Shown here: positions 2,869-63,246 of the stretch, piece after piece
Layout of the letters: the number at the start of each line of letters is the position of its first letter
Numbering within the stretch: the first letter of the stretch is position 1
DNA from: a virus
Taxonomy: Duplodnaviria; Caudoviricetes
Length of the DNA stretch: 64,000 nucleotides
Reading direction: 5' to 3' (one strand)
Virus record (IMG/VR): IMGVR_UViG_3300033120_001068
Span: 1-64,000 of that record
Translations under genes and position numbers: made by a program
The notes under the pieces: generated by a model
Database searches by the model: none
What the model was told of the DNA's origin: nothing
Seen by the model: only the letters and a program-made list of their open reading frames with translations

Positions 2869-4485
2869 ATGTTAAATGAAATCCAATCTATTGAGCAACT
2901 CAATGAATATAAGCAAAAACTTACCATTCAAGAAGGCTTGATGGTTAAAAAGGCATTTGAGAGTAGTGATATAAATGAAATATACAAGGCACAAAGATAC
3001 CTTGCTTCAAAAATTACTCAGAAGGATGACTCAGAAGGGAGAGCAATGTTATTTGACCCTTTGGAAATCACAAGATCTCAAGGATATAGAAACAAGAGAT
3101 TTTCGGTTTCTTATGATATGTTGAGGGCAATGGGAAAAACTGATATTGTTAAAGCAATCATTGAAACCAGAAAAGACCAAGTAAAAGCATTCTGTACTCC
3201 TCAGCCTGATAAATATTCTACTGGTTTCATTATTCAAAAGAAGTCTAAATTTCAGTTAAACAAGGAAGAAAAGAAATTATCAAAACAAGAAGAAGAAAAA
3301 ATAGAATACATTACCAACTTTATTCTTGATTGTGGAAATAATGAGAACTTCTGGGATGGAGATAATTTTGATATTTTTATAGGAAAAATAGTTAGTGATT
3401 CTTTGACATTAGATCAAGCAACTTTTGAAATAATTAGAAATAAAAAAGGGGAAGTGACTCAGTTCTTTGCAACAGATGGAGCAACTTTTAGAATTGCAGA
3501 TTCCTATCAGGATGACGATGCACAGAATGAGAAATTTATAAAAGGGTATCCACCAAGTTATGTCCAGATGTATCAAGGAAAAATAATTTCTGAATACTAT
3601 CCTTGGGAACTTGCTTTTTGTATCAGAAACCCTCAAACTGATATTAGACTAAATGGTTATGGAGTATCAGAATTAGAGGATATGATACAAACAGTGACTG
3701 CTATTCTAAATGCAGGTACTTACAACTCAAACTTCTTTAAAGTTGGTTCGGCACCAAAAGGAATCTTGAAATATACTGGAAACATAAATCCTTCAACCGT
3801 TGAAGATTTTAGAAGGCAATGGACTCAGCAACTTTCAGGAGTTCAAGGGATGCACAAAATCCCTATTATAAATGCAGACAAGTTAGACTTTATAAATACT
3901 CATGTTTCTAATAAAGACATGGAATATATGAAATATGTAGAATTCTTGATAAAGATTTGTTGTGCCATTTATAAAATTGACCCTTCTGAAATAAACTTTC
4001 CAATGGGAGGCTCAGGAGATGCTAAACCAATGTTTGAAGGAAACAATGAAGCAAGACTAAAACATTCAAAAGATAAAGGGTTGAGACCCTTGTTAAAGTC
4101 AATTGAGTCTTGGATAAATAAATGGTTGATTTCTCAGATAGACAAGGATTATGAATTTAGATTTGTAGGTATTGAAAGTGAGAAAGGTGAAAAAGATGAC
4201 TTAGATCTTGATATACAAAAACTATCCAACTTCCAAACTGTTAATGAGATTAGAAAGAAAAGAAACTTGAAAGATGTAGAGGGAGGAGATGTAATTTTAA
4301 ACCCTACTTTTGTTCAAGCAAAAATGCAAGAACAAATGGCAATGATGGGAGGCGGACAAGGAGGAGAAGAAAATGGAATGTTTGATGACCAAGAAGGGAA
4401 TGCAGGAGGTTCTGGTGAGGAAGGAGATGATAGTGAAGAAAATCCATTCTTGAAGGCATTATTAGAAGATAAAAGTTTACTTTAA
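2869..4485 (+). CDS. portal protein
   Basis: Portal-like motifs (DSLTLDQATFEI, YGVSELE, NSNFFKVGSAPKGIL, IDPSEINF, LRPLLKSIESWINK, TVNEIRK); acidic tail; start of the head module. Confidence 0.9.
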   Translation: MLNEIQSIEQLNEYKQKLTIQEGLMVKKAFESSDINEIYKAQRYLASKITQKDDSEGRAMLFDPLEITRSQGYRNKRFSVSYDMLRAMGKTDIVKAIIETRKDQVKAFCTPQPDKYSTGFIIQKKSKFQLNKEEKKLSKQEEEKIEYITNFILDCGNNENFWDGDNFDIFIGKIVSDSLTLDQATFEIIRNKKGEVTQFFATDGATFRIADSYQDDDAQNEKFIKGYPPSYVQMYQGKIISEYYPWELAFCIRNPQTDIRLNGYGVSELEDMIQTVTAILNAGTYNSNFFKVGSAPKGILKYTGNINPSTVEDFRRQWTQQLSGVQGMHKIPIINADKLDFINTHVSNKDMEYMKYVEFLIKICCAIYKIDPSEINFPMGGSGDAKPMFEGNNEARLKHSKDKGLRPLLKSIESWINKWLISQIDKDYEFRFVGIESEKGEKDDLDLDIQKLSNFQTVNEIRKKRNLKDVEGGDVILNPTFVQAKMQEQMAMMGGGQGGEENGMFDDQEGNAGGSGEEGDDSEENPFLKALLEDKSLL

Positions 4486-7244: not shown

Positions 7245-8405
7245 ATGGAGAATCACATCTTAAAAAGAAGGCAAGAAATCTGTTCAAATATTTGTTCCAC
7301 TTTTGAAAAAGCAAAAGCTAATATTGGTGAAATTAGAATTTGGGGTGGAGAGAAGTATAAGAAAGTTAATGCAGGAGAATGGGTTAAGTTGGTTGACTCA
7401 AAAGGGATTGAAAAAGAAAAAACAATTGCTCCCTCAGGAATTAATAAAGTTCTAAAAGAAGAACTTAATGAAAAAGAACTTGACTTTAAAAGAAAAGAGG
7501 AAAACTTTGAAAAAGAATGGACCTCTAAAAATGGATTTGGTTTAGCAGGAATTATTTTAAAAGTAAGTTTATCAAGAGCAAAAGAGGCTTCTGAGGAATT
7601 TAATTTAATTGCAAAAGAATATTTCTCTCTTAGAAAAGATTTGACAGATGAGTCAAATGAGGTTAAAGAACTTATAGAAAAAAGACAAAAAGAAAAAAGA
7701 CAAAAAGAAAGTGGGAAAATAGAAATTGATTTAGATGATAATTTATTTAAAGATCTTTTCAAAGATATTACCTCCATTACAAGAAAATATAGTGAGTTAC
7801 CAGTAAGTGTCTCAGCAAAGGTGGCATTAGGATTAAAAGTAAATGCAGATGACTATTGGTTGAGTACCAGTACATCTTTTATGAATCTTTTTTCCTATGA
7901 CTCATTTGAAAGTAAAACAGATGAGAAAGGGGAATGGGTGGATCCAATAGAATTGGAATGGGAAAAATTAAAAAAAGAAAACCCTAAATTAGAACATACT
8001 CATTCTCCTAAATCAACCTCAGAATATTTAGTTGATAGGGAGAAGGGTTTGGTTTATAGGATGGCTGACCATTGGGGGAGGTGTGCTTCTTGCTATTGGG
8101 ATTTTCAAGGAACTCATAGTTATGGGATTGGTGTTTCTAAATTATCAGATTTTGAGAGAAATGATAATGGTTATGGATTTTTAAATCCTGAATTGACTCC
8201 ACTATTAATCTCCTCCTCAAAAACAATTTTTAGAAAAGTAAATAAGGTTTTAGAAAATGAGAAAGTTTATTTAACAAAGCCTTGTTTGAATAAACTTAAA
8301 GTTATTATTGACTCAGTTTCAAGAGATCTAAGGTATAAAATAAATCTTAATATAGAAGAAATTGATAAAATAAAAAAACAATATTCAAAAGTTTTTTTAA
8401 TTTAA
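7245..8405 (+). CDS. putative capsid-cargo protein, leader plus module B plus unknown domain
   Basis: MENHILKRRQEI leader, FEK|A site, IGEIRIWGGEKYKK module; C-terminal RMADHWGRCASCYW motif. Confidence 0.75.
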   Translation: MENHILKRRQEICSNICSTFEKAKANIGEIRIWGGEKYKKVNAGEWVKLVDSKGIEKEKTIAPSGINKVLKEELNEKELDFKRKEENFEKEWTSKNGFGLAGIILKVSLSRAKEASEEFNLIAKEYFSLRKDLTDESNEVKELIEKRQKEKRQKESGKIEIDLDDNLFKDLFKDITSITRKYSELPVSVSAKVALGLKVNADDYWLSTSTSFMNLFSYDSFESKTDEKGEWVDPIELEWEKLKKENPKLEHTHSPKSTSEYLVDREKGLVYRMADHWGRCASCYWDFQGTHSYGIGVSKLSDFERNDNGYGFLNPELTPLLISSSKTIFRKVNKVLENEKVYLTKPCLNKLKVIIDSVSRDLRYKINLNIEEIDKIKKQYSKVFLI

Positions 8406-50518: not shown

Positions 50519-53500
50519 ATGTTAGAAATTGAGGAATTATTTCTCTCTTGGTGCCAGGAGAATTTAATTAAATTTGAAAAATTAGAAGAAAATATTTTCA
50601 ATATTCCAAGTTTTGGTAAAATATATTTAGTAGGTAAAGACAGAAATGAAAGAGACAGTACATTAGATACTTCTATGAACTTACTTTTGACTGACTTTGA
50701 GTATGAGGATATTGATAAAAAAGATCCTGATTATTTAGTTTATAAGTTTGGAGATAGATTTTATTACACCGAAACTGTTCAATCTCAAAAATTAATTCCC
50801 TTTTTATATGTAGGCGAACCAGATTTAGTTTTTGGTCCTATTGATTTTCCTTATCTTGGTATTCATTCAGGATTTGAACTTCTTTCAGGAAGTAGAAGAT
50901 ATAAGGATTATGTCCAAAAAATAAAATGGTTAGGCAGTACAATGGCAGGAGTTTGTGAAGAAAATACTCTTTCAGGAGTTATTTCTTTTCAAGAACAATG
51001 TGAGAAAAAGGGAATAAAATCAATTATTGGTGAAACTCTTTCTTTTTCATTAGTTGGTGATGAAATTAATAAAATTAAGTTCTATGTAAAAAATAAAGAA
51101 GGATGGACCAATTTACTTAAAATTCATAGACTTGCAACTACTGTAAATAAATTTATTTTATACAAAAAAGATTTAGACTATGACTTACTAAAAGGATTAA
51201 TAGTTGTAATTACACCAAGTATTGAATGTAGTTTAAGAACTATTTATAACCATTTCATAAAGGTCTTAAACCATAATGATACTTATTTTCAATTAGATTT
51301 TACAGAATGGACTTCACAAGATAGAGAAACTGCTTCCTTGTCAATTTTACAAGAATATATCTTGAATAAAGAAAACATTAAGTCAGTTCTTATAAATGAT
51401 TATTACTACTTAGAAAAAGGAGATTCTCATATAAAGAAAAAACTTGAATTTATAGGAGGAGGTGCTTTTAATTATTCTTCTAATGACCAATATTTAAAAA
51501 GTATTGACCAATATATTTTAGAACCTTTAGAATTAATAGAAAATGAAGAGTTTGTCTATTCTTTAATTGTAGATGCTTTGACCAATACAATTGATGCTTT
51601 TAAAGACATTGATTTTAATATTTTGACAAAAAAATTCTACTTACCAAAATTTCCAGTTGAGGGAAATGATACACCTGAAAGTTTACTTCTTGGTTATATA
51701 AGAAAAGGGATGCAAGAGAAAGTTGAGCCTTATAAAACAAGTACACAATTAGTTGAGTATTGGGAAAGAGTAGAAAGAGAATTTGATGTAATAAGTAGGG
51801 GTGGTTTTATTGATTATTTTCTTATCTTAATTGACTTATATCAATTTGCAGACAGAGAAGGAATATGGTATGGTATTGGAAGAGGGTCTTCTGCAGGATG
51901 TTTAATATCTTATTTAACTGGCATTGTAGGTGTAGATCCTATAAAGTATGACTTGTTCTTTGAAAGGTTCTTGAATGAAGGGAGACTTGGTAAATCTTTG
52001 CCTGATATTGATACTGATTGGCAAGGAAGTAGAAGAGAAGAAATAAAAAAATATTTAGAACATAAATATGGAAGTGACCAAGTAATAGGAATTGGTACTT
52101 ATGGTACATTTAGACTAAGAAATGCTTTTAGAGATGTAGCAAGAGCAAGTGGTATTGATATTGCAACTATAAATTTGGTTTCAAAGAATCTTCCTGATAC
52201 TGGTCAAAGGCAAGGAAGAGACCATTTTTATTGGGAACTTTTTCAATATTGCAGTTCAAGTATATTTTATGCTTTTTTACAGAAGTATCCTAATGTCTTA
52301 GAAGATATTTATCTGGTTTTAATGCAACCAAAAAATGCTTCAACTCATGCAGCAGGGGTGGTAATTACTCCAATAGAATTTGGAAAATCTTATGAGCAAC
52401 TCCCCGTAAAACTCATGGATGGTCAACCAGTATCAGAATGGGAGGGAGTTTTTGTAGATGAGGCAGGGTTTTTAAAAATAGATATTTTAGGAATTAAGCA
52501 ATTAGATAAACTTGCAGACATTTCTAAAATGATATTTGAGAGATATTCAAAAAATATAACTTTTAATGATATTGAGTTAGATGACCTTGAAGTATTTGAA
52601 AAGTTTAAGGGAGGATGGAATGAAGATGTCTTCCAATTGCAAGGAGTTGGTTTAAAAGGGTATTCAAAAGATCTTCAGCCTGATAACATTGAAGATATTA
52701 TAGCAACTGTTGCTTTATATAGACCAGGACCAATAGAAAGTGGCTCACATTTGAAGTATATTAAAAGAAAAAATGGAATTGAAGACATTGAGTTTTATCC
52801 AGGTATTGAAGAAATAACTAAAAGAACCTATGGTCTTGTGGTTTATCAAGAGCAAGTTATGCAGATATGCCAAAAACTTGCAGATTTCACATTAGTGGAA
52901 GCAGATGATATTAGAAAAGCAATGGGTAAGATGAAACCTGAGTTAGTTAGTGAGTACAAAATTATTTTCATGAAAAGAGTTAAAGAAAATGGTTATTCTG
53001 AAATTCTAATGGAAAGATTATGGGAGGAAATGGCAGCCTTTGCTAAATATGCCTTTAACCGTTCTCATGCTGTCTGTTATGCAATTACGGGGTATTATTG
53101 TCAATGGTTTAAAGTTTATTATCCATTAGAATTTTGGACCATTTCTTTACAGTATTCAAATGATGATGAAAGACCAAGTAGATTAACAGAAATTTATAAA
53201 ACTTCTACTATTAAAATAAAATCAGTTGATATTAATTATAGTTCAGTAGGGTTTAGGTCTGAGGTTAAAACAAATACTATTTACTGGTCCTTGGTGTCTG
53301 TTAAGTTTGTGGGAGAGAAAGTAGTTGAAGGTATTTTTGAAGAAAGAGAAAAAGGAGGATTATTTTATTCTTTTGAAGAATTTTTAAGTAGAATAAAAAA
53401 ATATTCCTCAGTAAATAAGAGAGCAATAACAAACCTTATAATCTGTGGAGCTTTTGATGAAATTGAAAAAATAAATGAACCTCAGGAAAGGTTTAGATTG

Positions 53501-53971
53501 TTTGACCAATTACATGGGAATGAAATAAAAGAAGATTTAAAGGAACTTAGGCTTTCAGACAACCACACCTGGGCTTTAAAAGAATATGATTTAACAGGAT
53601 TTGGTTTCTTTGACTTTGAAAAATTAATAGTAAAATCAACTTTATTCTCTAAAATTTCTTCTTATAAAACTAATCAAGAAATTCTTGAAAATGAAGAATT
53701 TATAGAACAACTAACTCATGTCTTGGTTGCAGGGTTATTAGTTGGTTTTGTTGAAAGGGAATCTAAAAATGGTAAGTTTTGTGAACTTCAATTAAGAGAC
53801 AATACTGACTTACTTTACATCACTGTATGGTCTGATTTTTATGATACAGAAATAATGAATGAAAAAAACATAGGAAAAACCATACTTTTTTATGGTCAAG
53901 TTACTTATGATACTTATAAAAAAAGCAATGTACTGCACAGTTGTAAAAAAACAAAAATTGACTTAATATGA
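50519..53971 (+). CDS. dnaE: DNA polymerase III alpha subunit (family C)
   Basis: GRGSSAG, DLFFERFLN, LPDIDTD, THAAGVVI, KIDILG, LYRPGP, YQEQVM and FNRSHA motifs; C-terminal OB fold. Confidence 0.96.
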   Translation: MLEIEELFLSWCQENLIKFEKLEENIFNIPSFGKIYLVGKDRNERDSTLDTSMNLLLTDFEYEDIDKKDPDYLVYKFGDRFYYTETVQSQKLIPFLYVGEPDLVFGPIDFPYLGIHSGFELLSGSRRYKDYVQKIKWLGSTMAGVCEENTLSGVISFQEQCEKKGIKSIIGETLSFSLVGDEINKIKFYVKNKEGWTNLLKIHRLATTVNKFILYKKDLDYDLLKGLIVVITPSIECSLRTIYNHFIKVLNHNDTYFQLDFTEWTSQDRETASLSILQEYILNKENIKSVLINDYYYLEKGDSHIKKKLEFIGGGAFNYSSNDQYLKSIDQYILEPLELIENEEFVYSLIVDALTNTIDAFKDIDFNILTKKFYLPKFPVEGNDTPESLLLGYIRKGMQEKVEPYKTSTQLVEYWERVEREFDVISRGGFIDYFLILIDLYQFADREGIWYGIGRGSSAGCLISYLTGIVGVDPIKYDLFFERFLNEGRLGKSLPDIDTDWQGSRREEIKKYLEHKYGSDQVIGIGTYGTFRLRNAFRDVARASGIDIATINLVSKNLPDTGQRQGRDHFYWELFQYCSSSIFYAFLQKYPNVLEDIYLVLMQPKNASTHAAGVVITPIEFGKSYEQLPVKLMDGQPVSEWEGVFVDEAGFLKIDILGIKQLDKLADISKMIFERYSKNITFNDIELDDLEVFEKFKGGWNEDVFQLQGVGLKGYSKDLQPDNIEDIIATVALYRPGPIESGSHLKYIKRKNGIEDIEFYPGIEEITKRTYGLVVYQEQVMQICQKLADFTLVEADDIRKAMGKMKPELVSEYKIIFMKRVKENGYSEILMERLWEEMAAFAKYAFNRSHAVCYAITGYYCQWFKVYYPLEFWTISLQYSNDDERPSRLTEIYKTSTIKIKSVDINYSSVGFRSEVKTNTIYWSLVSVKFVGEKVVEGIFEEREKGGLFYSFEEFLSRIKKYSSVNKRAITNLIICGAFDEIEKINEPQERFRLFDQLHGNEIKEDLKELRLSDNHTWALKEYDLTGFGFFDFEKLIVKSTLFSKISSYKTNQEILENEEFIEQLTHVLVAGLLVGFVERESKNGKFCELQLRDNTDLLYITVWSDFYDTEIMNEKNIGKTILFYGQVTYDTYKKSNVLHSCKKTKIDLI

Positions 53972-54444
53972 CCAACCAAATTAAAACCAAAGCACCTAAA
54001 CAGGTGGTTGTTAGACAAATCTCAGAAGGGATTGTAACCAATGATAAAAAGACAACTTATAAAAAAATACTTTTCAAATGCCTTGCAGGGAATGACTGGT
54101 TGATGTATGTTAGAAAGGATTATGGGAGATATCTTTATGACTCAATAAAAGTAGGAGATATTTATACCAATGTTCAACTTTCTGATAAAGGGTCAAGAGT
54201 GAATCAACTTAGTTCAAAATTGAATACCCCATTAGGTAATACTAAAGATTGGATTGATGAAGGACATAAAGGAAGTGGTGTGCACTGTTATAGACATTCT
54301 GAAAAACCAGAAAAAACTATTCTTATAATACCAAAAACTGATAATCCAGGATTTAAGTTAGTTATTTTTCAAGATGGTTCCAATATTATTCCATATACTT
54401 TGAGTAAGGTTGAAATATTGAATAAATTTTGTATTTTTTTATAA
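53968..54444 (+). CDS. hypothetical protein
   Basis: 158-aa ORF overlapping the dnaE stop (ATGA-type overlap). Confidence 0.6.
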   Translation: MTNQIKTKAPKQVVVRQISEGIVTNDKKTTYKKILFKCLAGNDWLMYVRKDYGRYLYDSIKVGDIYTNVQLSDKGSRVNQLSSKLNTPLGNTKDWIDEGHKGSGVHCYRHSEKPEKTILIIPKTDNPGFKLVIFQDGSNIIPYTLSKVEILNKFCIFL

Positions 54445-54446
54445 TT

Positions 54447-54500
54447 TTTTATTTAAAATACTTTTATTTAAATAAACTTTAATTATATTTATACTAACAA
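54447..54500 (+). promoter_or_regulatory. repeated promoter cassette (copy 1)
   Basis: Palindrome TTTATTTAAATAAA (54463-54476) plus TATATTTA (54484-54491); near-identical to 61934-61990. Confidence 0.7.
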
Positions 54501-54538
54501 CTCAAACACAAATAAAAACTCAAACAAAAACTGAACCC

Positions 54539-56470
54539 ATGAAAAAAAACAATACCATACTTAGAAAGTATCAAAAAAATGACCTTCAACTAGTACTTGA
54601 AAGTCTTGAAAAAAATGATGGAGTATTATATCAATTGATGACTGGGGGAGGGAAATCAGTTATTATTTCTGAAGTTATTCAAACTTATAAAAACAAAAAA
54701 ATCCTCTTCCTTGCTCATAGAAGAGAACTGCTTCTACAAATGAGGAGAAGACTTCAAGAGTCAGGATTAAAAGTTGGAGTAATGATGTCTGAAATGGAAG
54801 AAGAATTAGAAGACAATATAGTTATTGCTTCCATTCAAACTGCTACAAGAGAAAAGAGATTAAGTTCCTTATTGGAACATAAATGGGATTTAATTGTAAT
54901 TGATGAAGCACATCATTTAAGATCTCCTTCTTATGATAAATTACTTGATGCTTTAAAAAGTGAAAATGAAGGCATTAAAATCTTTGGAGTAACTGCAACT
55001 CCATACCGTTCTGATAAGAAAGAATTTACTCCTTATTTCCAAGATTTGATTACTTCCCTCCCTGCAGAAGAATTAGTTGCACAAGGATATTTAGCAGGAG
55101 TTACTACTTTTTCTATGAAATTAACAGACATAGAAACAGAAGTTGTAAGATATGAAAATGACTACCAAACATCTTCACTTTCTGAATATATGAGAAAACC
55201 AAAGTATCTCCAATACTTGGTTGATATGTATAAAGAAAAAGCAGATGGTAAGCAAATGATAGTTTTCTGTGTAGACATTAAACATGCTAAGTCAGTAATG
55301 GAAACTTATATAAACAATGGTTATACTTCTATTGGTTATATAGATTCATCTGTAACTAATGAGGAAAGGGACTCTATTTTGTTAGCATATAGAAACAAAG
55401 AACTTGATATAATTGTCTGTATTGAAACTTTAACCGAAGGTGTAGATTTACCAGAAACCAGTGTTGTTCAAATTGCAAGACCTACTAAATCAATTATTTT
55501 ATTTTCTCAAATGGGAGGAAGGGGAACTAGGCCAAAAGAAGATGGCAGTAATTTAATACTTTTAGATTGTGGAGATTGTATGAATGAACATGGTCATCTA
55601 TATTCAAAAAGGGAATGGACACTTGATTCTTCCAAAGATCCAAATAGTTTAAGAAAAGGAAATAAGGTGGTTGCAAAAAGGAATGGTGAGTTTATAGAAT
55701 TTTCAGAAGTAGAAGATGGTAGTTTTGACGAATTAGTTGAACTTTCCATGGAAGAATATTTAATGAATTTTTCTGGTTCTATTGAAAAAATGAAAGAAAA
55801 AAACAGTCAGTTAGATGATGAAATTTCAGAAATTCTAAAAAATACACATAAAAAAATACTTGAAAAATTTCTAAAAGAACATGCTACTCTCTTTATCGAA
55901 TCATCTGTATCTGAACGTTACTTTGATTTTTCTTTGAAAACAAATAAGTATAATCCCATAATTACAATAGGAAGTTATAGTAAACCTGAAGAAATACTTA
56001 TAGGAGGAGTAAAAGGGACAGTTGAAGAAGTTCAGAATCAAGTTAATCTTACTCAGATTTTTACAAAAAACTTGCTTGAAATACTTAAAATTACTTCTTC
56101 TGCAAGAAAGGAAATTGCAGAAATTAAAAGTAAGAAAGTTGATATTTATGAGTTAAAAGAAAAAGTTTTAGTTCTGAAAGAAGAAAAAAGACTTCTTGAG
56201 TTACAAGATTTACTTTCAATTACAGATGGATCTCTGTTCTTAAAAAATGAACAGTCAATAGGACAATGGTTTTCAAATAGTTATGGTTGGGTGAATGAAA
56301 TTAAGTTCAGTAGAAATAAATTGCTTTCCACAAATGATGTAACTTTTATCAAAAAAACAGAAGAGAAGTCTAAAAAAATACACCATGTTAAATTCTTGGA
56401 AAAGAAAAAAATACTTGAAATCTTTTCCACTAAATTACTAACTGAAATAAGAGAAAATTTAAATAATTAA
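54539..56470 (+). CDS. superfamily 2 DEAD/DEAH-like helicase
   Basis: TGGGKS, DEAHH, TAT, LTEGVDLP and QMGGRGTR. Confidence 0.92.
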   Translation: MKKNNTILRKYQKNDLQLVLESLEKNDGVLYQLMTGGGKSVIISEVIQTYKNKKILFLAHRRELLLQMRRRLQESGLKVGVMMSEMEEELEDNIVIASIQTATREKRLSSLLEHKWDLIVIDEAHHLRSPSYDKLLDALKSENEGIKIFGVTATPYRSDKKEFTPYFQDLITSLPAEELVAQGYLAGVTTFSMKLTDIETEVVRYENDYQTSSLSEYMRKPKYLQYLVDMYKEKADGKQMIVFCVDIKHAKSVMETYINNGYTSIGYIDSSVTNEERDSILLAYRNKELDIIVCIETLTEGVDLPETSVVQIARPTKSIILFSQMGGRGTRPKEDGSNLILLDCGDCMNEHGHLYSKREWTLDSSKDPNSLRKGNKVVAKRNGEFIEFSEVEDGSFDELVELSMEEYLMNFSGSIEKMKEKNSQLDDEISEILKNTHKKILEKFLKEHATLFIESSVSERYFDFSLKTNKYNPIITIGSYSKPEEILIGGVKGTVEEVQNQVNLTQIFTKNLLEILKITSSARKEIAEIKSKKVDIYELKEKVLVLKEEKRLLELQDLLSITDGSLFLKNEQSIGQWFSNSYGWVNEIKFSRNKLLSTNDVTFIKKTEEKSKKIHHVKFLEKKKILEIFSTKLLTEIRENLNN

Positions 56471-56476
56471 TATATT

Positions 56477-57241
56477 ATGCCTAAAACATTAATAAGTAGT
56501 GAAAGTGCTACACATCCAATCCCTGAAGGATATAAAGAAGGAAAACTTATGATTTCTGAACTCTTCATTGATACAATACAAGGGGAAGGAAGGACAATTG
56601 GATTCCCTTGTATCTTCATAAGATTTACAGGATGTACTTTAAATTGTAGTTGGTGTGATACCACAGAAGTATGGAGAAAAGGACTTTACTACACTTTTGA
56701 AGATTTATTTACTATGCTTGAAATAAGTGGAACAATTGGTAAGTTGAAAACTGGTCAACACTTAATTTTAACAGGAGGTAGTCCTTTAAAACAACAAAAA
56801 AGTATAGTAGAATTTTTGATGCAATTTATTTCTAAATATGGTTTTAAACCTTTTATAGAAGTAGAAAATGAGTGTGTTTTAATGCCTTCAAGACACTTGA
56901 TTTCTTTGGTTGACCAATGGAATAATTCTCCAAAATTAGCTAATTCAAACATGAAAGTTAAAGCAAGAATGAAACCTGATATAATCTTAGCAACTGCTTT
57001 ACTTCCAAACTCATGGTTTAAGTTTGTTGTTTATTGTCAAGAAGACTGGAATGAAATACTTTCTGATTTTGTTGAAACCGGACTTGTAACCATGGATCAA
57101 ATAATACTTATGCCTCTTGGAATAAATCAAGAAGAGTTAAGTAAATCAAGAGAATTCGTTGTAAATTTATGTACTGAAAATTCAGTACTTTTTTCTGATA
57201 GGTTGCATATAACAATATGGGACAAAAAAACTGGTGTATAA
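56477..57241 (+). CDS. queE: 7-carboxy-7-deazaguanine synthase (radical SAM)
   Basis: TIQGEG...IRFTGCTLNCSWCDT (CxxxCxxC), TGGSP, SPKL and RLHI..W. Confidence 0.93.
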   Translation: MPKTLISSESATHPIPEGYKEGKLMISELFIDTIQGEGRTIGFPCIFIRFTGCTLNCSWCDTTEVWRKGLYYTFEDLFTMLEISGTIGKLKTGQHLILTGGSPLKQQKSIVEFLMQFISKYGFKPFIEVENECVLMPSRHLISLVDQWNNSPKLANSNMKVKARMKPDIILATALLPNSWFKFVVYCQEDWNEILSDFVETGLVTMDQIILMPLGINQEELSKSREFVVNLCTENSVLFSDRLHITIWDKKTGV

Positions 57242-57471
57242 TGAAAAACTTAGAAGTAGAATTAAAAGAATTGGTATTAGATACTGCTAATGCAACCCTT
57301 ATTATTTCAGTAAATAAAGAAGGGAAATGGTATGCAACCATTGGAGATAAAGGAGCAAGAGTGGAAGAAGAGGGTTTAAAACAACTTGTCCCTTCAATAA
57401 TTTCTTATTTAAAAGAAAATAGAAAAGTTAAAGAACCTACAAAAAGATCACTTAAAAACTTTACATTGTAA
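57241..57471 (+). CDS. hypothetical protein
   Basis: Probable start MKNLEVE, coupled to the queE stop. Confidence 0.5.
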   Translation: MKNLEVELKELVLDTANATLIISVNKEGKWYATIGDKGARVEEEGLKQLVPSIISYLKENRKVKEPTKRSLKNFTL

Positions 57472-57474
57472 CGT

Positions 57475-57924
57475 ATGTATGAATCAACTAAATTTTTTAA
57501 AGGGTACTCATGTGCTATCAGACAATGGAGAGCAAGTCATTCTCATTGCCAATTGGTGCATGGATATTCTTTTTATTTTCAAATAACTTTTTCTCCTATA
57601 AATGGAAAGTTAGACGAAATGAATTGGGTTCAGGATTTTGGTTCTTTTAAAAGAAATGGTCTTAAAGAATGGTTAGATGAAATGTTTGACCACACCACTT
57701 TAATTGAAAAAGATGACCCTTACCTTGAATGGTTTCAATGGGCAGATTCTGAAAAGATTTTAAAGTTAGTTATACTTGACCAGATGGGTGCAGAATCAGT
57801 AGCTAAACTTGTTTTTGATAAGTTCAATGAAAGACTTAGTTTAATTGAGGGAGGAAGAGTTGAAGTTGTCAAAGTAGAATGTTTTGAAAATGAAAATAAT
57901 TCAGGAATTTATAAAAAACAGTGA
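57475..57924 (+). CDS. queD: 6-carboxy-5,6,7,8-tetrahydropterin synthase
   Basis: HSHCQLVHGY, DFG, FDHT, GAE and ENENN. Confidence 0.9.
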   Translation: MYESTKFFKGYSCAIRQWRASHSHCQLVHGYSFYFQITFSPINGKLDEMNWVQDFGSFKRNGLKEWLDEMFDHTTLIEKDDPYLEWFQWADSEKILKLVILDQMGAESVAKLVFDKFNERLSLIEGGRVEVVKVECFENENNSGIYKKQ

Positions 57925-58275
57925 ATGAAAAAAGAAGAACAAATAAGTAGACTTAATCAATTGGATAAAGATACAATTGAGTTGATAAAAACTAAATCTG
58001 AGGATTATGCAAAGGATATAGATGTTCTTTCAAACTTCAAAATAGTTTCAAAACTGATTGAGTTAATTGGAGTTGATGTCACCAAACCAGAAGGGTATGC
58101 AATGTTAATGGTACTTTTAAAAATAGTAAGAATTTGGAACTTAAAATCAGCAAATAAAATTCCAAACAATGAGTCACTTTTAGATTCTTATAAAGATCTA
58201 ATAAATTATGCTAAATTATCATTACTTAACGAAATAGAATCTAATAAAAATGTCACTACAGAAAACAAAAACTAA
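57925..58275 (+). CDS. DUF1599-like nucleotide-modification-associated all-alpha protein
   Basis: KSEDYA..SNF...LK..R...ESLLDSYKDLINYA pattern. Confidence 0.55.
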   Translation: MKKEEQISRLNQLDKDTIELIKTKSEDYAKDIDVLSNFKIVSKLIELIGVDVTKPEGYAMLMVLLKIVRIWNLKSANKIPNNESLLDSYKDLINYAKLSLLNEIESNKNVTTENKN

Positions 58276-58921
58276 TCCTGAATTAGGGAAAAAAGTTGAA
58301 AAATACTTAAAAGAAAAAGGAGTCCAAACTCCCATGTCCAATTTTGAAATCTTGGATGAAGAAAAAAAAGAAATAATAGAAGACAGTTTTAGAAAGATAA
58401 TGCAAGTTTTAGGACTTGATTTATCAGATGATTCTTTAGAAGACAGTCCTAAAAGAGTTTCAAAAATGTATGTAGATGAAATATTTTGGGGATTAAATCC
58501 TTCAAACTTTCCTAAATGTACTGCAATTGACAACAAGATGAATGTAGATGAGATGGTCATAGAAAGAAACATAAATGTCCAAAGCAACTGCGAACACCAT
58601 TTTGTTATAATAGATGGCACTTGTGATGTAGCATATATCCCAAAAAACAAAGTTTTAGGATTATCAAAAATGAATAGGATAGTTGAATATTTTTCAAAAA
58701 GGCCTCAAGTTCAAGAAAGACTTACAAGTCAAATTTTTCATACCTTATGTTTCATTTTGGAAACAGAAGACGTAGCAGTTAGAATAAAGGCTCAGCACTT
58801 TTGTGTTAAGTCAAGAGGAGTTGAGGATACTGGTTCAGACACAGTCACTTCAAAGTTGGGAGGTTCTTTTAAAAATGAGCCTGAATGTAGATCTGAATTT
58901 TTCTCACTTCTTAACAAATAA
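58250..58921 (+). CDS. folE: GTP cyclohydrolase I
   Basis: SNCEHHF, GLSKMNRIV..FSKRPQVQERLT and HFCVKSRGV. Confidence 0.96.
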   Translation: MSLQKTKTNPELGKKVEKYLKEKGVQTPMSNFEILDEEKKEIIEDSFRKIMQVLGLDLSDDSLEDSPKRVSKMYVDEIFWGLNPSNFPKCTAIDNKMNVDEMVIERNINVQSNCEHHFVIIDGTCDVAYIPKNKVLGLSKMNRIVEYFSKRPQVQERLTSQIFHTLCFILETEDVAVRIKAQHFCVKSRGVEDTGSDTVTSKLGGSFKNEPECRSEFFSLLNK

Positions 58922-58923
58922 GA

Positions 58924-59343
58924 ATGCCAAAAGTAACTCATGTTAAAAGTTGCAATAAAACTATTTTTTTTATCAATTCAAAAGGAGAAGAAAAAGTTTT
59001 AGTTGAAAAAGGGAAAGAATATTGGTGGTGGAAATTTAGAAATTTTCCAAGACAAGTTTCTTCAACAAAACCTAAACCAAGAGATGTAAGACATCCTAAT
59101 AAATCTACTTGGGATCTTGATATTCAAAAGTACCAAGAAGAAGTCAATGATTTAGAAGAATGTCTTGATTTAGAACTTATTGAGAACTTGATTTCTGAAT
59201 TAGAAGAACAAGTTGAAACTATGCAAGATTCTTTATCTAATATGCCTGAGCAATTACAAGAATCAAGTATTCTTAATGAAAGAATAGAAGAACTGCAAGA
59301 ATTTATTTCCACTTTGGAAGGAATTGATTTAGAAGAAAGATAA
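58924..59343 (+). CDS. hypothetical protein
   Basis: Basic N-half (KGKEYWWWKF), acidic coiled-coil C-half. Confidence 0.65.
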   Translation: MPKVTHVKSCNKTIFFINSKGEEKVLVEKGKEYWWWKFRNFPRQVSSTKPKPRDVRHPNKSTWDLDIQKYQEEVNDLEECLDLELIENLISELEEQVETMQDSLSNMPEQLQESSILNERIEELQEFISTLEGIDLEER

Positions 59344-59350
59344 ATTAAAA

Positions 59351-59635
59351 ATGGAAACTACCGTTGACGAATACCAAAATAAAGTGACCTTAGTAAAGAA
59401 ATATGTAAAAGGCCAAGAAGATTTATATTTATTAGCCAAACTTACTGAGGAAGCAGGCGAGGTTGCAAAAGAAATAAGAAGGAAAGTAGAAGGAATAGAT
59501 ACTTGTAAAGATCTTACAAGTGAGTTGGGAGATTTACTTTGGTGTATCACTGCAATAGCAGAAAGAAATGACATTGCAATGAGCAAAGTTATTGAAGCTA
59601 ACCTTGAAAAATTAAAACAAAGAGGCTTATTATGA
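59351..59635 (+). CDS. mazG: MazG-like nucleotide pyrophosphohydrolase
   Basis: LTEEAGEVAKEIRR...ELGDLLWCITAIA. Confidence 0.88.
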   Translation: METTVDEYQNKVTLVKKYVKGQEDLYLLAKLTEEAGEVAKEIRRKVEGIDTCKDLTSELGDLLWCITAIAERNDIAMSKVIEANLEKLKQRGLL

Positions 59636-60450
59636 AAATAGCTCATGAATCACCAACTTCTATTTTTAAAGAAGTTCAGAAACTTACAGACTATGACTAT
59701 TGTTTAGTTCACCTTTTAGAAGAAGATTCAAATTATTTAGAAAATTTTCTGTCTTCAAAAAAAGAAGGAAGGGAAATAATTTTAGATAATTCAATTTTTG
59801 AATTAGGAGTAGCATTTGATTCCAAAAGTTTTTCTAAATGGGTTGAAAAATTAAGACCTGACTGGTATATTGTTCCAGATGTTTTAGAAAATTGTTATTC
59901 AACTGTCTTGAATTATCATAGTTTTATAAGAGAATATCCTGATTTGCCAGGCAAGAAAATAGGAGTTTTACAAGGGAAGACTTATGAACAACTTTTATAT
60001 TGCTATGTTAATCTGGTTGATCTTGGAGTTGATAAGATAGCAATTTCTTTTGACTACTCTTATTATGTTGATTTATATCCCAATGAAAACAAGTTAGTTT
60101 CTTGGTGTGAAGGTAGAAAGATGTTCATTGATAAAATAATAGAAGATGTAAGATTTGACTCCTCCATTCCAATACATTTATTAGGATGCTCACTACCTCA
60201 AGAATTTAATCATTATAGAAATAATGAAATTATTGAAAGTATGGATTCTTCTAATCCAGTAGTTTGTGGTTTATATGGAATAGAATATAATGGTTTGCAA
60301 GGATTACAAGAAAAGCCTTCTAAAAAACTTTTTGAATTGATTAGAGAAAAAGTAAATGAGGATTCTCTAAGTAAAGTAATAAAAAACATATTGACTTTTA
60401 AAAAAATAGTAAATGGGAAAACTAATATCAATCTCAGGAACTCATTGTAG
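59632..60450 (+). CDS. dpdA: DpdA/TGT-like 7-deazaguanine transglycosylase
   Basis: TGT-like barrel motifs ILDNS, VPDV, LQG, HLLG and SMDSS; embedded in the que cluster. Confidence 0.7.
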   Translation: MKIAHESPTSIFKEVQKLTDYDYCLVHLLEEDSNYLENFLSSKKEGREIILDNSIFELGVAFDSKSFSKWVEKLRPDWYIVPDVLENCYSTVLNYHSFIREYPDLPGKKIGVLQGKTYEQLLYCYVNLVDLGVDKIAISFDYSYYVDLYPNENKLVSWCEGRKMFIDKIIEDVRFDSSIPIHLLGCSLPQEFNHYRNNEIIESMDSSNPVVCGLYGIEYNGLQGLQEKPSKKLFELIREKVNEDSLSKVIKNILTFKKIVNGKTNINLRNSL

Positions 60451-61000
60451 TGGAAAAACTACTTTATTAAAAGAACTTGAAACTTCATATTCTGTAAATA
60501 GAAAAGATGAAGATTTTAAAGTTTTATTTGTTGACTCAGTAACAAGGAGTTTGAAGAAAAAAGGGTATCCAATCAATAATGAGGAAAGTTCTAATTATGA
60601 TGGTACTCAAATTGCTTGTCTTAAACAAGATTTAAGAAATATTCAAACTGCCTTTTTACTTGATGGAACCTATATTTTTGATAGAAGTTTACTTGATACT
60701 TTTGTTTATACAACTTATCTGTTTAGGCAAAAGAAAGTTTCAACTGAGGCTTATGAAGAAATTAAGTCCAGGTGGGAAGGAAATAAAAATTCTTTTGATG
60801 TAATCTTTCTTTTAAACCATACAGAAATCCCTTTTGATAATGATGGAGTCAGAAGTCCTAATTTACTTTTTAGAGAAGAAATTGCATTGATTTTTAAAGA
60901 AATTTTAGGAGAAAGCAACATAGTTCTTGAAATAGTTTCAGGAAGTAAAGAAATTAGATTATTAACAGTAATTAAAAAGATATGGAAAATAAATCAATAA
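60413..61000 (+). CDS. P-loop nucleotide (dNMP-type) kinase
   Basis: GTHCSGKTT, FDRSLLD and DGVR. Confidence 0.8.
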   Translation: MGKLISISGTHCSGKTTLLKELETSYSVNRKDEDFKVLFVDSVTRSLKKKGYPINNEESSNYDGTQIACLKQDLRNIQTAFLLDGTYIFDRSLLDTFVYTTYLFRQKKVSTEAYEEIKSRWEGNKNSFDVIFLLNHTEIPFDNDGVRSPNLLFREEIALIFKEILGESNIVLEIVSGSKEIRLLTVIKKIWKINQ

Positions 61001-61929
61001 ATGACTTTGCATCTAAGTCACTTGGTAGTGAGAATAGTTATGCAATATACAGTGAGAAGTATGACCCTTCCTTACTTGTAAAAATGCCAAGATATTTGGC
61101 AAGGCAGGAAATAAAAGTTTCCAATTCTCCTTTTGGAGTTGATGTTTGGCATGGTTATGAATGTACTTTTTTATTGAATAATGGTTTACCAATTTCAGGA
61201 ATTCTAAAATTTGTCTATCCTTCAAGTAGTTTTTTTATGGTTGAGTCAAAATCTATGAAACTTTACTTGAATACTTTTGATATGTGTAAATTAGGAGAAG
61301 AGGAAGTTGAAGCAGTAGAAAATTATCTGCACCTTGTGGGGAGTCACTTAAGTGAATGTCTTGAAATTCTCCCTTCTTCTCTAATTTTAAGTTTCCATTC
61401 TGACTCTAATTTTATTTTGCCTAAACTTGATCTTAATTCTTTAATCAACTTAGAGTCTCTTGTTTCTAAAGATGATAAGTTTAATTATAGTGAACTTGTT
61501 GAAATAAATAATCACATTAAAACTCTTGAGATTAAAGAAGTAGAAGAAAGAACAAAAAATTGGACTTTTTATAAAACTAACATTCTAAGATCAAGATGTA
61601 GACACACTAAACAAAAAGACACAGGATATGGTTTCTTCTTTATAAAAACTTCTATTGATGTTACCATAGATCCATTATCTTTATTGAAGCAAGTATTAGC
61701 ATTAAGAGAAACAAATGAGTTTCATGAATTTTGCAGTGAAAAGTTATATACTGCAATAAAAGAGACAGAAGGAGTTGAGGAATGTTGTGTGGTATTAATG
61801 TATGTAAGAAGGGGAGGCTTGGATATTAATCCTATCAGATCTTCTTTACCTTTTAAAGACATCCCTCACCATTTACCTGAATATTTAAGTCTTGGTAAAT
61901 TTTTATTTGAAAGAACTTTTATTCAATAA
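60982..61929 (+). CDS. queF: preQ0 nitrile reductase, bimodular (YqcD-type)
   Basis: QueF signature ESKSMKLY; catalytic SRC..T.QKD; FHEFC; RRGGLDINP. Confidence 0.9.
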   Translation: MENKSINDFASKSLGSENSYAIYSEKYDPSLLVKMPRYLARQEIKVSNSPFGVDVWHGYECTFLLNNGLPISGILKFVYPSSSFFMVESKSMKLYLNTFDMCKLGEEEVEAVENYLHLVGSHLSECLEILPSSLILSFHSDSNFILPKLDLNSLINLESLVSKDDKFNYSELVEINNHIKTLEIKEVEERTKNWTFYKTNILRSRCRHTKQKDTGYGFFFIKTSIDVTIDPLSLLKQVLALRETNEFHEFCSEKLYTAIKETEGVEECCVVLMYVRRGGLDINPIRSSLPFKDIPHHLPEYLSLGKFLFERTFIQ

Positions 61930-61933
61930 ACAA

Positions 61934-61990
61934 TTATTTTATTTAAAATGCTTTTATTTAAATAAACTTTCATTATATTTATGCTATCAA
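61934..61990 (+). promoter_or_regulatory. repeated promoter cassette (copy 2)
   Basis: Palindrome TTTATTTAAATAAA (61953-61966) plus TATATTTA (61974-61981). Confidence 0.7.
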
Positions 61991-62010
61991 CTCAAACAAA
62001 AACACAAACC

Positions 62011-62433
62011 ATGGAATCACTTGAAATTAAGTCAGTTGTAGAAATGCAAATCATCATGGAAATGAGGCAGCATTTTACAGATGAAGACAGCATCAAAATC
62101 TTCAATTCTTTATGTCTAAGTCAAACTCATTTTCCAAACATATCTTTAGAAGAACTTTGGAAGAAAGAAAAATTGTTCTATTTAATTCACAAAGAATCTT
62201 CTATTCAATGCATAAGAATGGGGTTAAATATTTCAGGGTTATTTAGGGAAGACATCTTCCAGTCTTTTGAGAAAATTAAAAAAAGCATTTTATCTTCAAA
62301 AAATACTGAGCATTTAAAATCATGCAAGGAACTTCTTGTTCTTTTCAATGATAAATTTAGTTCTCATAAAGCCATTTCTACTTTTAATCTTGAGTTGGAT
62401 TTTTTATGGAATACAACTTACTATAACCTATAA
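62011..62433 (+). CDS. hypothetical protein
   Basis: The track ATG at 61981 lies inside the promoter cassette; ATG 62011 (AAACCATG) matches the 54539 context. Confidence 0.6.
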   Translation: MESLEIKSVVEMQIIMEMRQHFTDEDSIKIFNSLCLSQTHFPNISLEELWKKEKLFYLIHKESSIQCIRMGLNISGLFREDIFQSFEKIKKSILSSKNTEHLKSCKELLVLFNDKFSSHKAISTFNLELDFLWNTTYYNL

Positions 62434-62442
62434 ATCATAAAT

Positions 62443-63246
62443 ATGAAAAAAGCAATTCTTGCACTATCAGGAGGAATGGATTCAACCTGCCTTTTACTAA
62501 GATTACTTAGAGAGAATTTTGAAGTAACTTGTATTCTTTTTGACTATGGTCAAAAGCATAAAGTTGAATTGGAAAGGGCTCTTAGAAATATAAACCATTT
62601 GAAAAAAAATGAACTTCCTGTCTCTTATCATAAAGTAGATTTAAGTTTCATGTCTGACTTTGGTTCATCTTTGACTTCTTCTTCATGTAAAGTTCCAGAA
62701 GGGCATTATAGTGAAGATAACATGAAAAGCACAGTTGTCCCTAACAGGAATGCTATTTTTTCTTCCATAATATATGGATATGCACTTTCTTTATCAAACT
62801 CATGTAATAATGAGGAAGTAGTAATCTCACTAGGTATTCATTCAGGAGACCATGCTATTTATCCTGATTGTAGACCAGAATTTAGAGATTCACTTGAAAA
62901 AGCATTTAAACTAGGAAATTGGGGAGGAGATAAAGTTTCATACTACACTCCATTTATTGATTTTGACAAAACAATGATTTTAAGGAGTGCTATGGACTCA
63001 TGTGAGTATTTAGGCCTTTCATTTGATTTTATCTTAGGAAATACTTTAACTTCCTATAATCCTGATTCTCTTGGTCGTTCATCTGGAAAATCTGGTTCTG
63101 ATATTGAAAGAATTGAAGCATTTATGAACATTTCTAGAATAGACCCAATCCAATACCAAGAACCTTGGGAGGCAGTAAAGAAACATGCTCTTAAAATTTT
63201 AAATAAATTTAAAGATGAGGGAAATACCAATAAGTCAGGAAATTAG
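62443..63246 (+). CDS. queC: 7-cyano-7-deazaguanine synthase
   Basis: LSGGMDST, FDYGQKH, VPNRNAIF and YPDCRPEF. Confidence 0.94.
   Translation: MKKAILALSGGMDSTCLLLRLLRENFEVTCILFDYGQKHKVELERALRNINHLKKNELPVSYHKVDLSFMSDFGSSLTSSSCKVPEGHYSEDNMKSTVVPNRNAIFSSIIYGYALSLSNSCNNEEVVISLGIHSGDHAIYPDCRPEFRDSLEKAFKLGNWGGDKVSYYTPFIDFDKTMILRSAMDSCEYLGLSFDFILGNTLTSYNPDSLGRSSGKSGSDIERIEAFMNISRIDPIQYQEPWEAVKKHALKILNKFKDEGNTNKSGN

Follow-up and report, generated by a model that had tools for sequence, protein, structure and literature searches.

A DpdA3-type 7-deazaguanine cluster with MazG and a nucleoside or nucleotide kinase in a probable Flavobacteriales phage: a candidate route to base replacement before replication

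Introduction

Complete replacement of a canonical DNA base is rare, and the well-studied cases rewire the nucleotide pool. Both T4, with its hydroxymethylcytosine (hmC), and the Z-genome phages make their replacement at the nucleotide level, through a trio consisting of a deoxynucleoside triphosphatase (dNTPase), an enzyme that carries out the modification, and a kinase or synthetase. In current descriptions the 7-deazaguanines form the exception, being attributed to post-replicative insertion even where 100% of the guanine (G) is exchanged. Here, we analyse a 7-deazaguanine gene cluster in the virus record IMGVR_UViG_3300033120_001068 from IMG/VR (89,022 bp; estimated completeness, 89%), of which the first 64 kb, positions 1 to 64,000, constitute the stretch referred to below as the window. 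Judged by its gene content, the cluster is a 7-deazaguanine genome-modification module of the DpdA3 type and a variant of this known system that lacks DpdN.

The DpdA3 subfamily of transglycosylases was defined by Cui, Hutinet et al., who found G to be completely replaced in the phages CP220 (by dADG), phiST (by dDG) and immuto (by formyl-dPreQ1) (PMC10516641). According to the same work, DpdA3 expressed alone in E. coli produced no DNA modification, the characterised post-replicative DpdA enzymes reach at most ~30% of G, and the word 'kinase' is absent from the main text (PMC10516641). A machinery for making modified dGTP had earlier been proposed for Campylobacter phages, as cited by Hutinet et al. 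in 2019 (PMC6884629)—an idea that was set aside once DpdA3 had been found (PMC10516641). Free ADG nucleoside has been reported in CP220-infected cells, and our full-text literature search found no later paper that settles the DpdA3 substrate.

A short DpdA3 with the predicted fold of transglycosylases

The gene at 59632-60450 (+ strand) encodes a protein of 272 aa that belongs to the DpdA3 subfamily. Over 96-97% of its length, this protein is 53% identical to the DpdA of Flavobacterium phage immuto and 38% identical to CP220 gp056 (tblastn), and it matches PHROG 19058 at 2.5e-45. The DpdA3 of phiST (CGPG_00065) gave no tblastn match and was recovered at 6e-26 with a family hidden Markov model (HMM) built around the window protein. 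The protein matches no Pfam family at E 0.01, and consequently not the tRNA-guanine transglycosylase (TGT) family PF01702, and a phmmer search with the single sequence against PDB sequences returned nothing. What a first-pass annotation of the window, made from its letters alone, had called a DpdA-like gene can nonetheless be named DpdA3 from homology and fold.

An AlphaFold2 (AF2) model computed from 55 diverse relatives reached a predicted local distance difference test (pLDDT) score of 95.3. In structure comparisons it came closest to ArcTGT (Z 18.3; root-mean-square deviation 3.2; 237 residues aligned), followed by DpdA 7ui4 (17.8), bacterial TGT (16.5) and Cap10 (15.4), with QTRT2 as a further neighbour, and Foldseek paired it with TGT at E 8e-8. 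Near-invariant features of the family include LDNS (D52), PD (D83), Q114-G115, R162, H182-LLG and the D205 motif, which reads DTSNP in most members and MDSSNP in the window protein. A marginal profile match (E 0.045) aligns HLLG...SxD of DpdA3 with DpdA 7ui4 and thereby brings D205 into register with the SID of DpdA.

DpdA3 is markedly compact: at 272 aa versus 413 for DpdA and ~370 for TGT, it falls 100-170 residues short of these enzymes, and 238 residues align. TGT enzymes carry a C-terminal zinc motif of the form CxCxxC...H. Across the 55 DpdA3 sequences no Cys is conserved, and only ~65 residues follow the nucleophile; this, together with the reduced length, indicates that DpdA3 is, as modelled, a bare TGT barrel lacking the zinc subdomain and the insertions that bind nucleic acid. 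Net charge and isoelectric point were uninformative with respect to DNA binding (median 5.55 for DpdA3 and 5.63 for DpdA1, the subfamily of phage 9g).

The family is large, comprising 2854 proteins at 90% clustering, 1547 representatives at 50% and at least 552 IMG/VR loci. In some members DpdA3 is fused to QueF, to the DpdN formyltransferase or to a GNAT-like domain, an arrangement that fits a preQ1 base being passed straight to DpdA3. Among metagenomic proteins, such fusions (P0271, P0272, P0179, P0182, P0164 and P0121) involve QueF, DpdN, a GNAT-like C-terminal domain or an unknown N-terminal domain of 317 aa; by their sequence, the acyltransferase-like ones hint at further N-acylated preQ1 bases in DNA.

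Kinase genes accompany DpdA3

Directly downstream of DpdA3 lies a gene for a P-loop protein of 195 aa (60413-61000, + strand) with matches to Pfam AAA_28 (3e-18; 66.8 bits against a cut-off of 27 bits), Pfam dNK (1e-4) and PHROG 2107, 'thymidylate kinase' (8e-26). Its AF2 model (pLDDT 88) most resembles the ribosylnicotinamide kinase domain of NadR (Z 19.0), vaccinia thymidylate kinase (TMPK; 17.5) and human deoxyguanosine kinase (17.2), followed by other TMPKs and deoxynucleoside kinases (dNKs), and Foldseek matched it to deoxyadenosine kinase, TMPK and deoxycytidine kinase at ~1e-7. Of the motifs conserved in the family, GxxSxGKTT, DRxxxDxxVY and DDGxRS vary little or not at all, and E.TR is a further one; Walker A, a DR(x) acceptor-site motif and an Arg-bearing LID are all represented. 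By model and motifs, the protein is a small-molecule nucleoside or nucleotide kinase, which argues against a DNA-dependent ATPase helper resembling DpdB. It is the only AAA_28 kinase in the 89-kb genome, just as the MazG encoded upstream of DpdA3 is the only protein of its kind.

To place the kinase in a wider context, we collapsed 128 viral DpdA3 loci at 90% DpdA3 identity, kept the 47 that offered at least 2.5 kb on both sides, and scored the kinase by its family HMM within 4 kb of DpdA3. The family was present in 41 of the 47 loci (13 of 19 DpdA3 clusters at 70% identity), always downstream, on the same strand, and between DpdA3 (or DpdN) and QueF. In four further loci, all environmental (L042, L059, L117 and L120), a DUF3310 gene occupies the kinase slot; in L042, for example, it lies at 7310-7594 between DpdN and QueF. 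Pfam DUF3310 is also carried by gp1.7 of phage T7 (L216:567-1154; E 4.5e-23), a nucleotide kinase that turns dTMP and dGMP into diphosphates, as Tran et al. 2012 are quoted in PMC11897194. At ~95-128 aa, the DUF3310 open reading frames (ORFs) of DpdA3 loci are roughly the domain alone, and a kinase activity can therefore only be presumed for them. The remaining two loci, which have neither the kinase family nor DUF3310, are those of MA9V-3, with an AAA_18/AAA_33 kinase-like gene directly upstream, and of Bacillus phage BSTP12, with a weakly matching P-loop gene that bears a DR motif and likewise lies upstream.

The gene orders of individual phages add to this picture. In phiST, MazG, a small ORF, an AAA_18 'ATPase', DpdA3, a small ORF and DnaE follow one another; CC_R7 has QueC, a DpdA3-like gene, the kinase and a DNA polymerase; and in CP220 a fusion of an HD and a kinase domain precedes DpdA3, which is followed by the kinase. 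Judging from these assignments, three unrelated kinase types fill the position beside DpdA3. As a control, we inspected 41 dereplicated loci of the DpdA1 (phage 9g) type, none of which contained a P-loop kinase.

Outside this survey, tblastn against 50,697 isolate phage records placed relatives of the kinase in 17 DpdA3-bearing Campylobacter phages and in one Streptomyces phage, Enygma. The Enygma kinase gene overlaps one for a FkbM-like methyltransferase. MazG and DnaE are encoded in its vicinity, and this cluster may be another nucleotide-level modification module.

dNTP-cleaving enzymes at DpdA3 loci

Upstream of DpdA3, the window encodes a MazG-type nucleoside triphosphate (NTP) pyrophosphohydrolase of 94 aa (59351-59635, + strand; Pfam MazG, PF03819, 5e-13; 49.6 bits against a 22-bit cut-off), whose metal-binding motif EEAGE...E(LG)D aligns to that of B. 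subtilis YpjD (2gta). The usual product of the MazG family is the monophosphate. All three phages with full replacement have a gene of the dNTP-cleaving type beside DpdA3, namely the HD-kinase fusion in CP220, MazG in phiST and a PRA-PH/MazG-superfamily protein in immuto. In the immuto clade the pyrophosphatase belongs to the PRA-PH type, in the window clade and in L135 to the MazG type, and about half of the surveyed loci have either an NTP pyrophosphatase or an HD hydrolase.

MazG, DpdA3, the kinase and QueF form a chain of overlapping genes, as the first-pass annotation had noted, and its description stands at every junction. MazG and DpdA3 have the ATGA at 59632-59635 in common, an overlap preserved in the related loci L217 and L218; the DpdA3 stop codon (TAG, 60448-60450) lies 38 nt into the kinase ORF, whose start at ATG 60413 is consistent with the family alignment; and, with ATG 60982 as the start of QueF, the kinase gene and queF share 19 nt, while the alternative ATG 61001 would make the two genes merely abut. 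The closest relative, L217 (DpdA3 63% identical), is otherwise fully syntenic, the next one being 55% identical, and the order MazG, DpdA3, kinase is retained in these nearest relatives despite an inserted homing endonuclease or 330-aa gene.

Upstream of FolE, immuto-type clusters carry a short gene (~131 aa; L001:5840-6235 and 25 further loci) that resembles a phosphoribosyltransferase (PRTase), its Pfam match covering only the motif for phosphoribosyl pyrophosphate (PRPP). It may recycle the guanine that is released there. For the window phage, a PRTase route was ruled out, as its genome contains no such gene and the match elsewhere is limited to the PRPP motif.

Weighing a pre-replicative route

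The enzymatic steps beyond preQ1 were drawn from gene context, protein fold and the analogy with T4 and Z-genome phages. MazG would cleave dGTP to dGMP, thereby lowering the competing dGTP and supplying a substrate. DpdA3 would then—in the key and still hypothetical step—swap guanine for preQ1 on the free deoxynucleotide by means of its conserved Asp nucleophile. The kinase, with its dNK/TMPK-type fold, would phosphorylate the modified deoxynucleoside monophosphate, which host guanylate kinase perhaps refuses; host nucleoside diphosphate kinase would finish the triphosphate, and the phage DnaE would incorporate it. The expected outcome is the complete or near-complete replacement of G that was measured in immuto, phiST and CP220.

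A route of this kind, operating on nucleotides before replication, had been put forward in the first-pass annotation, which also drew on a DUF1599-like protein and on DnaE. Comparative genomics lends weight to its core, in that the kinase accompanies DpdA3 through distant lineages, and removes the other two as conserved partners. The DUF1599-like gene was ruled out because it occurs in one of the 47 DpdA3 loci and in the nearest relative only, and DnaE was rejected as a required partner because the polymerase type varies, DpdA3 phages using DnaE, PolA or a T4-like polymerase.

We consider the pathway in which MazG yields dGMP, this free nucleotide has its base exchanged by DpdA3, and kinase and polymerase complete the process to be the best-supported reading of the locus and, on balance, a probable one. 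The fuller proposal—that DpdA3 is a deoxynucleotide:7-deazaguanine transglycosylase, and as such the first enzyme of the TGT superfamily to use a free mononucleotide, that it forms a pathway with MazG and the kinase, and that every G of the phage is thereby turned into dPreQ1—could well be correct, yet we offer it tentatively.

Several observations weigh against a nucleotide-level exchange. To our knowledge, no TGT-fold enzyme acts on a mononucleotide, and every characterised TGT/DpdA enzyme that we know of acts on a polynucleotide, the exception being the protein-modifying Cap10. At the level of our model, a nucleoside kinase and a nucleoside monophosphate (NMP) kinase are not separable by fold alone. 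Only 23 of the 47 DpdA3 loci have an all-alpha NTP pyrophosphatase gene within 4 kb, and the PRA-PH form is found in three of 19 clusters at 70% identity. Neither a DpdA3-kinase nor a MazG-DpdA3 fusion was seen among 150 representatives, 3 long forms and the best 120 phiST-type relatives. Streptomyces phage Enygma (gp96-gp97, L220:5204-6615) has a member of the kinase family (E 5e-36) and no DpdA3.

The control set calls for caution, too. The difference in kinase content between DpdA3 and DpdA1 loci gives a Fisher p of 5e-19, uncorrected for shared descent; given that loci share descent and that the control amounts to one lineage of small siphoviruses (~60 kb, poor in nucleotide genes), this value and the locus counts overstate the evidence and its independence. 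Within 4 kb of the transglycosylase, MazG occurs in two and DUF3310 in one of the 41 DpdA1 loci, and in one more locus MazG is 5.3 kb away. L081, the DpdA1 locus that diverges most (40% identity to 9g), carries MazG and DUF3310 side by side at 3346-4094, 2.3-2.6 kb upstream of the transglycosylase, so that the association with nucleotide enzymes is not strictly limited to DpdA3.

These points bear on the most serious of the alternatives, the published view, in which DpdA3 would swap G very efficiently in DNA that has already been replicated, with MazG and the kinase being ordinary pool genes that share an early or middle operon. Post-replicative insertion has been proposed for all DpdA families (PMC10516641), DpdA3 is a TGT/DpdA homologue whose best matches among solved structures are enzymes working on tRNA or DNA, and an SF2 helicase gene opens the operon in the window clade; the gaps in the distribution of the pyrophosphatase and the lack of a DpdA3-kinase fusion likewise speak for it. 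This view leaves unexplained, however, why a kinase gene of one of three unrelated types stands beside DpdA3 in 47 of 47 loci and not in DpdA1 loci, and why all three genomes with 100% replacement come with a dNTP-cleaving enzyme. Nor does it readily accommodate a DpdA3 that is so much shorter than the polynucleotide-acting enzymes and devoid of conserved zinc-site Cys, the failure of DpdA3 to modify DNA in E. coli, or the ceiling reached by the characterised post-replicative enzymes. We therefore regard it as a genuine competitor that is nevertheless unlikely to be right.

Exchange could also precede replication at a different level: on deoxyguanosine, by way of a triphosphohydrolase and a deoxynucleoside kinase; on dGTP directly; or on a ribonucleotide that the host ribonucleotide reductase (RNR) would subsequently reduce. 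The kinase fold suits deoxynucleoside kinases as well as TMPKs, and in CP220 an HD domain, which dNTP triphosphohydrolases have as their fold, is fused to a second kinase domain and accompanied by a separate kinase; the free ADG nucleoside of infected cells and the PRTase-like gene of immuto-type loci point the same way. In the window phage, however, the hydrolase is a MazG, from which a monophosphate would be expected, a single kinase is present, and the 89-kb genome holds no PRTase, RNR, HD or canonical TMPK gene; elsewhere, the PRTase-like match is confined to the PRPP motif. Given these absences, and with MazG and the kinase each the only gene of its kind, a deoxynucleotide route is simpler than a ribonucleotide route, and we deem exchange at these other levels improbable.

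Very little can be said for a kinase-like protein that serves DNA-acting DpdA3 as a DpdB-like ATPase helper, or that works as a GMP kinase returning released guanine to GTP for FolE, because even though bacterial DpdA needs an ATPase partner (DpdB), any exchange model releases guanine stoichiometrically and the PRTase-like gene of immuto-type loci could begin its recycling, the fold and the E.TR, DR..D..VY and DDGxRS motifs belong to small-molecule nucleoside and NMP kinases rather than to DNA-dependent ATPases, the substitution by a T7 gp1.7-type domain points to kinase chemistry, and hosts already possess guanylate kinase.

Absence of DpdN and the predicted base

[quoted passage not shown] Among the first 60 loci, 52 have DpdN after DpdA3; it is absent from the window phage, for which we therefore predict, from gene content, dPreQ1 rather than formyl-dPreQ1 as the final base, unless an unknown ORF decorates preQ1. 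So far, dPreQ1 has been reported only as a partial modification (PMC10516641).

Two observations in related clusters may bear on the identity of the base. In L217, an extra gene of 330 aa (L217:5786-6778) separates DpdA3 from the kinase; as this is the slot taken by DpdN in other phages, its product may be another base-decorating enzyme. Upstream in DpdA3 clusters of the formyl-preQ1 type, a peptide deformylase gene recurs (PF01327, 6e-36; L097:1919-2434 and 8 further loci), which could be an ordinary auxiliary gene or encode a deformylase that acts on the formylated base.

Genomic setting of the cluster

Structural genes take up roughly the first 46 kb of the genome, and genes for DnaB, a primase and DnaE, together with the deazaguanine cluster, follow from 47 kb on; the remainder includes SbcCD-like genes, UvrD, TerL and a ThyA-like gene. 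The latter (genome positions 80216-81400; L003:17216-18400) encodes a ThyA-family protein of 394 aa that extends ~130 residues beyond the 266-position Pfam model, and the ThyA of immuto is similarly long; it could be a plain ThyA or a paralogue that modifies dUMP or dCMP. For TerL, Chryseobacterium phage MA9V-3 is the closest match, with 61% identity, ahead of Riemerella, Croceibacter and Cellulophaga phages, which makes a member of the Flavobacteriales the probable host. Despite this TerL similarity, MA9V-3 (L064) has a DpdA3 of the phiST type (29% identity) with an AAA_18 kinase-like gene lying upstream, and it lacks QueF; the comparison of gene contents indicates that the modification module was exchanged on a related phage backbone. 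At the DNA level, megablast of the cluster against the 50,697 phage records gave no match.

The region 54539-61929 is a single run of eleven + strand genes that overlap or are separated by at most 7 nt. It opens with an SF2 helicase (54539-56470; Pfam ResIII 1e-25, Helicase_C 6e-17), which is kept in L217 and not conserved at other DpdA3 loci, followed by a QueE-like radical SAM protein, the predicted 7-carboxy-7-deazaguanine synthase (56477-57241; Fer4_12 1.5e-6, Radical_SAM 3e-4), homologous to the QueE of immuto and 36 loci. Next come an ORF of 84 aa (57217-57471) without Pfam or PHROG match that is kept in L217 (E 1e-21), and QueD, the 6-carboxytetrahydropterin synthase (57475-57924; PTPS 6e-16). 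The DUF1599/DUF6378-like ORF of 116 aa (57925-58275) sits exactly where the first-pass annotation had placed it, between the end of QueD (57924) and the start of FolE (58250); its Pfam match is weak (DUF1599 7e-5; 23.5 bits, under the 25-bit cut-off), and its neighbours in the ESM Atlas are DUF1599/DUF6378 clusters. FolE, the GTP cyclohydrolase I (58250-58921; GTP_cyclohydroI 9e-59), is succeeded by an ORF of 139 aa (58924-59343) that recovered only unnamed viral clusters from the Atlas and is kept in L217 (E 4e-46). After MazG, DpdA3 and the kinase, the run closes with a bimodular QueF, the preQ0 to preQ1 reductase (60982-61929; QueF_N 6e-22, QueF 7e-8).

Beyond QueF, on the same strand, lie an ORF of 150 aa without family (61981-62433), which shows weak similarity to a 76-aa ORF in L217 (E 7e-7), and QueC, the preQ0 synthase (62443-63246; QueC 2e-40). 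Upstream of the run, the phage encodes its own replicative polymerase, as the first-pass annotation had stated: a DnaE of 1150 aa (50519-53971, + strand) with PHP, pol III alpha, finger and HHH domains (DNA_pol3_alpha 1e-58, finger 5e-46, HHH_6, PHP). No Pfam match was obtained for the ORFs at 58924-59343, 61981-62433 and 53968-54444 or for a 320-aa ORF after QueC, and searches of some of them against PHROGs and the Atlas gave nothing either [or, for the 139-aa ORF, the unnamed clusters above]. The DUF1599-like gene and the small unknown ORFs are kept only within the clade of the window phage.

An AT-rich cassette of 73 nt occurs twice on the + strand as a direct repeat (D1), just upstream of the helicase gene (54447-54519) and after QueF (61937-62009), where it overlaps the start of the ORF at 61981. 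The copies are 90% identical and flank the gap-free run to which MazG, DpdA3 and the kinase belong, and the cassette may be a phage promoter or regulatory element. A scan for sigma-70 promoters returned 47 sites versus 46 expected from shuffles, that is, no excess.

Discussion

If DpdA3 works on free nucleotides, the TGT superfamily would gain a new substrate class, and it would be clear why DpdA3 by itself did not work in E. coli. The mechanism would represent new enzymology, and the DpdN-less variant of the window phage predicts DNA fully substituted with dPreQ1, a degree of replacement not yet reported for that base. The base pathway, MazG, DpdA3 and the kinase would then constitute a minimal transferable set with which one could produce modified dNTPs enzymatically or, in vivo, DNA that is fully substituted with deazaguanine. 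Expectations as to how such phages evade restriction and CRISPR, and how they appear in sequencing, would change as well.

Of the described systems, that of immuto is among the closest. Both phages encode FolE, QueD, QueE and QueC along with a bimodular QueF, and in both a member of one kinase family lies between DpdA3 and QueF and an all-alpha NTP pyrophosphatase upstream of DpdA3; in immuto G is fully replaced. Immuto differs in having DpdN, a pyrophosphatase of the PRA-PH type, the PRTase-like gene, PolA and a genome of 160 kb, where the window phage has MazG, DnaE and 89 kb and lacks DpdN and the PRTase-like gene; the window clade, in turn, adds the DUF1599-like gene and three small unknown ORFs.

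Cellulophaga phage phiST (dDG; DpdA3 with DpdL), which infects the same host order and is likewise completely substituted, resembles the window phage in its succession of QueD, QueE, FolE, MazG, a kinase-like gene and DpdA3 adjoining DnaE. Its DpdA3, however, is of a distant subtype, the kinase-like gene is of the AAA_18 type and lies upstream, QueC and QueF are missing, and DpdL gives 7-deazaguanine. Campylobacter phage CP220 (Firehammervirus, dADG), with 100% replacement, has the same kinase family after DpdA3 and a phosphohydrolase directly upstream; here, the hydrolase is an HD protein fused to a second kinase-like domain, the pathway halts before preQ0, and the phage is a T4-like myovirus.

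The DpdA1 systems of phage 9g and other Queuovirinae, too, combine a TGT-superfamily enzyme with FolE, QueD, QueE and QueC near a polymerase. In contrast to DpdA3, DpdA1 measures 317 aa and has conserved Cys/His, P-loop kinases are missing from its loci and MazG is rare, and modification is post-replicative, motif-dependent and limited to about 27-30% of G at most.

In its logic, the proposed pathway corresponds to those of T4, with the dCTPase gp56, the dCMP hydroxymethylase gp42 and the dNMP kinase gp1, and of the Z-genome phages, with MazZ, PurZ and DatZ. In each, a trio destroys the canonical dNTP down to the monophosphate, alters a mononucleotide and restores the triphosphate; the difference is that T4 and the Z-genome phages modify the base in place, whereas DpdA3 would swap the whole base by transglycosylation.

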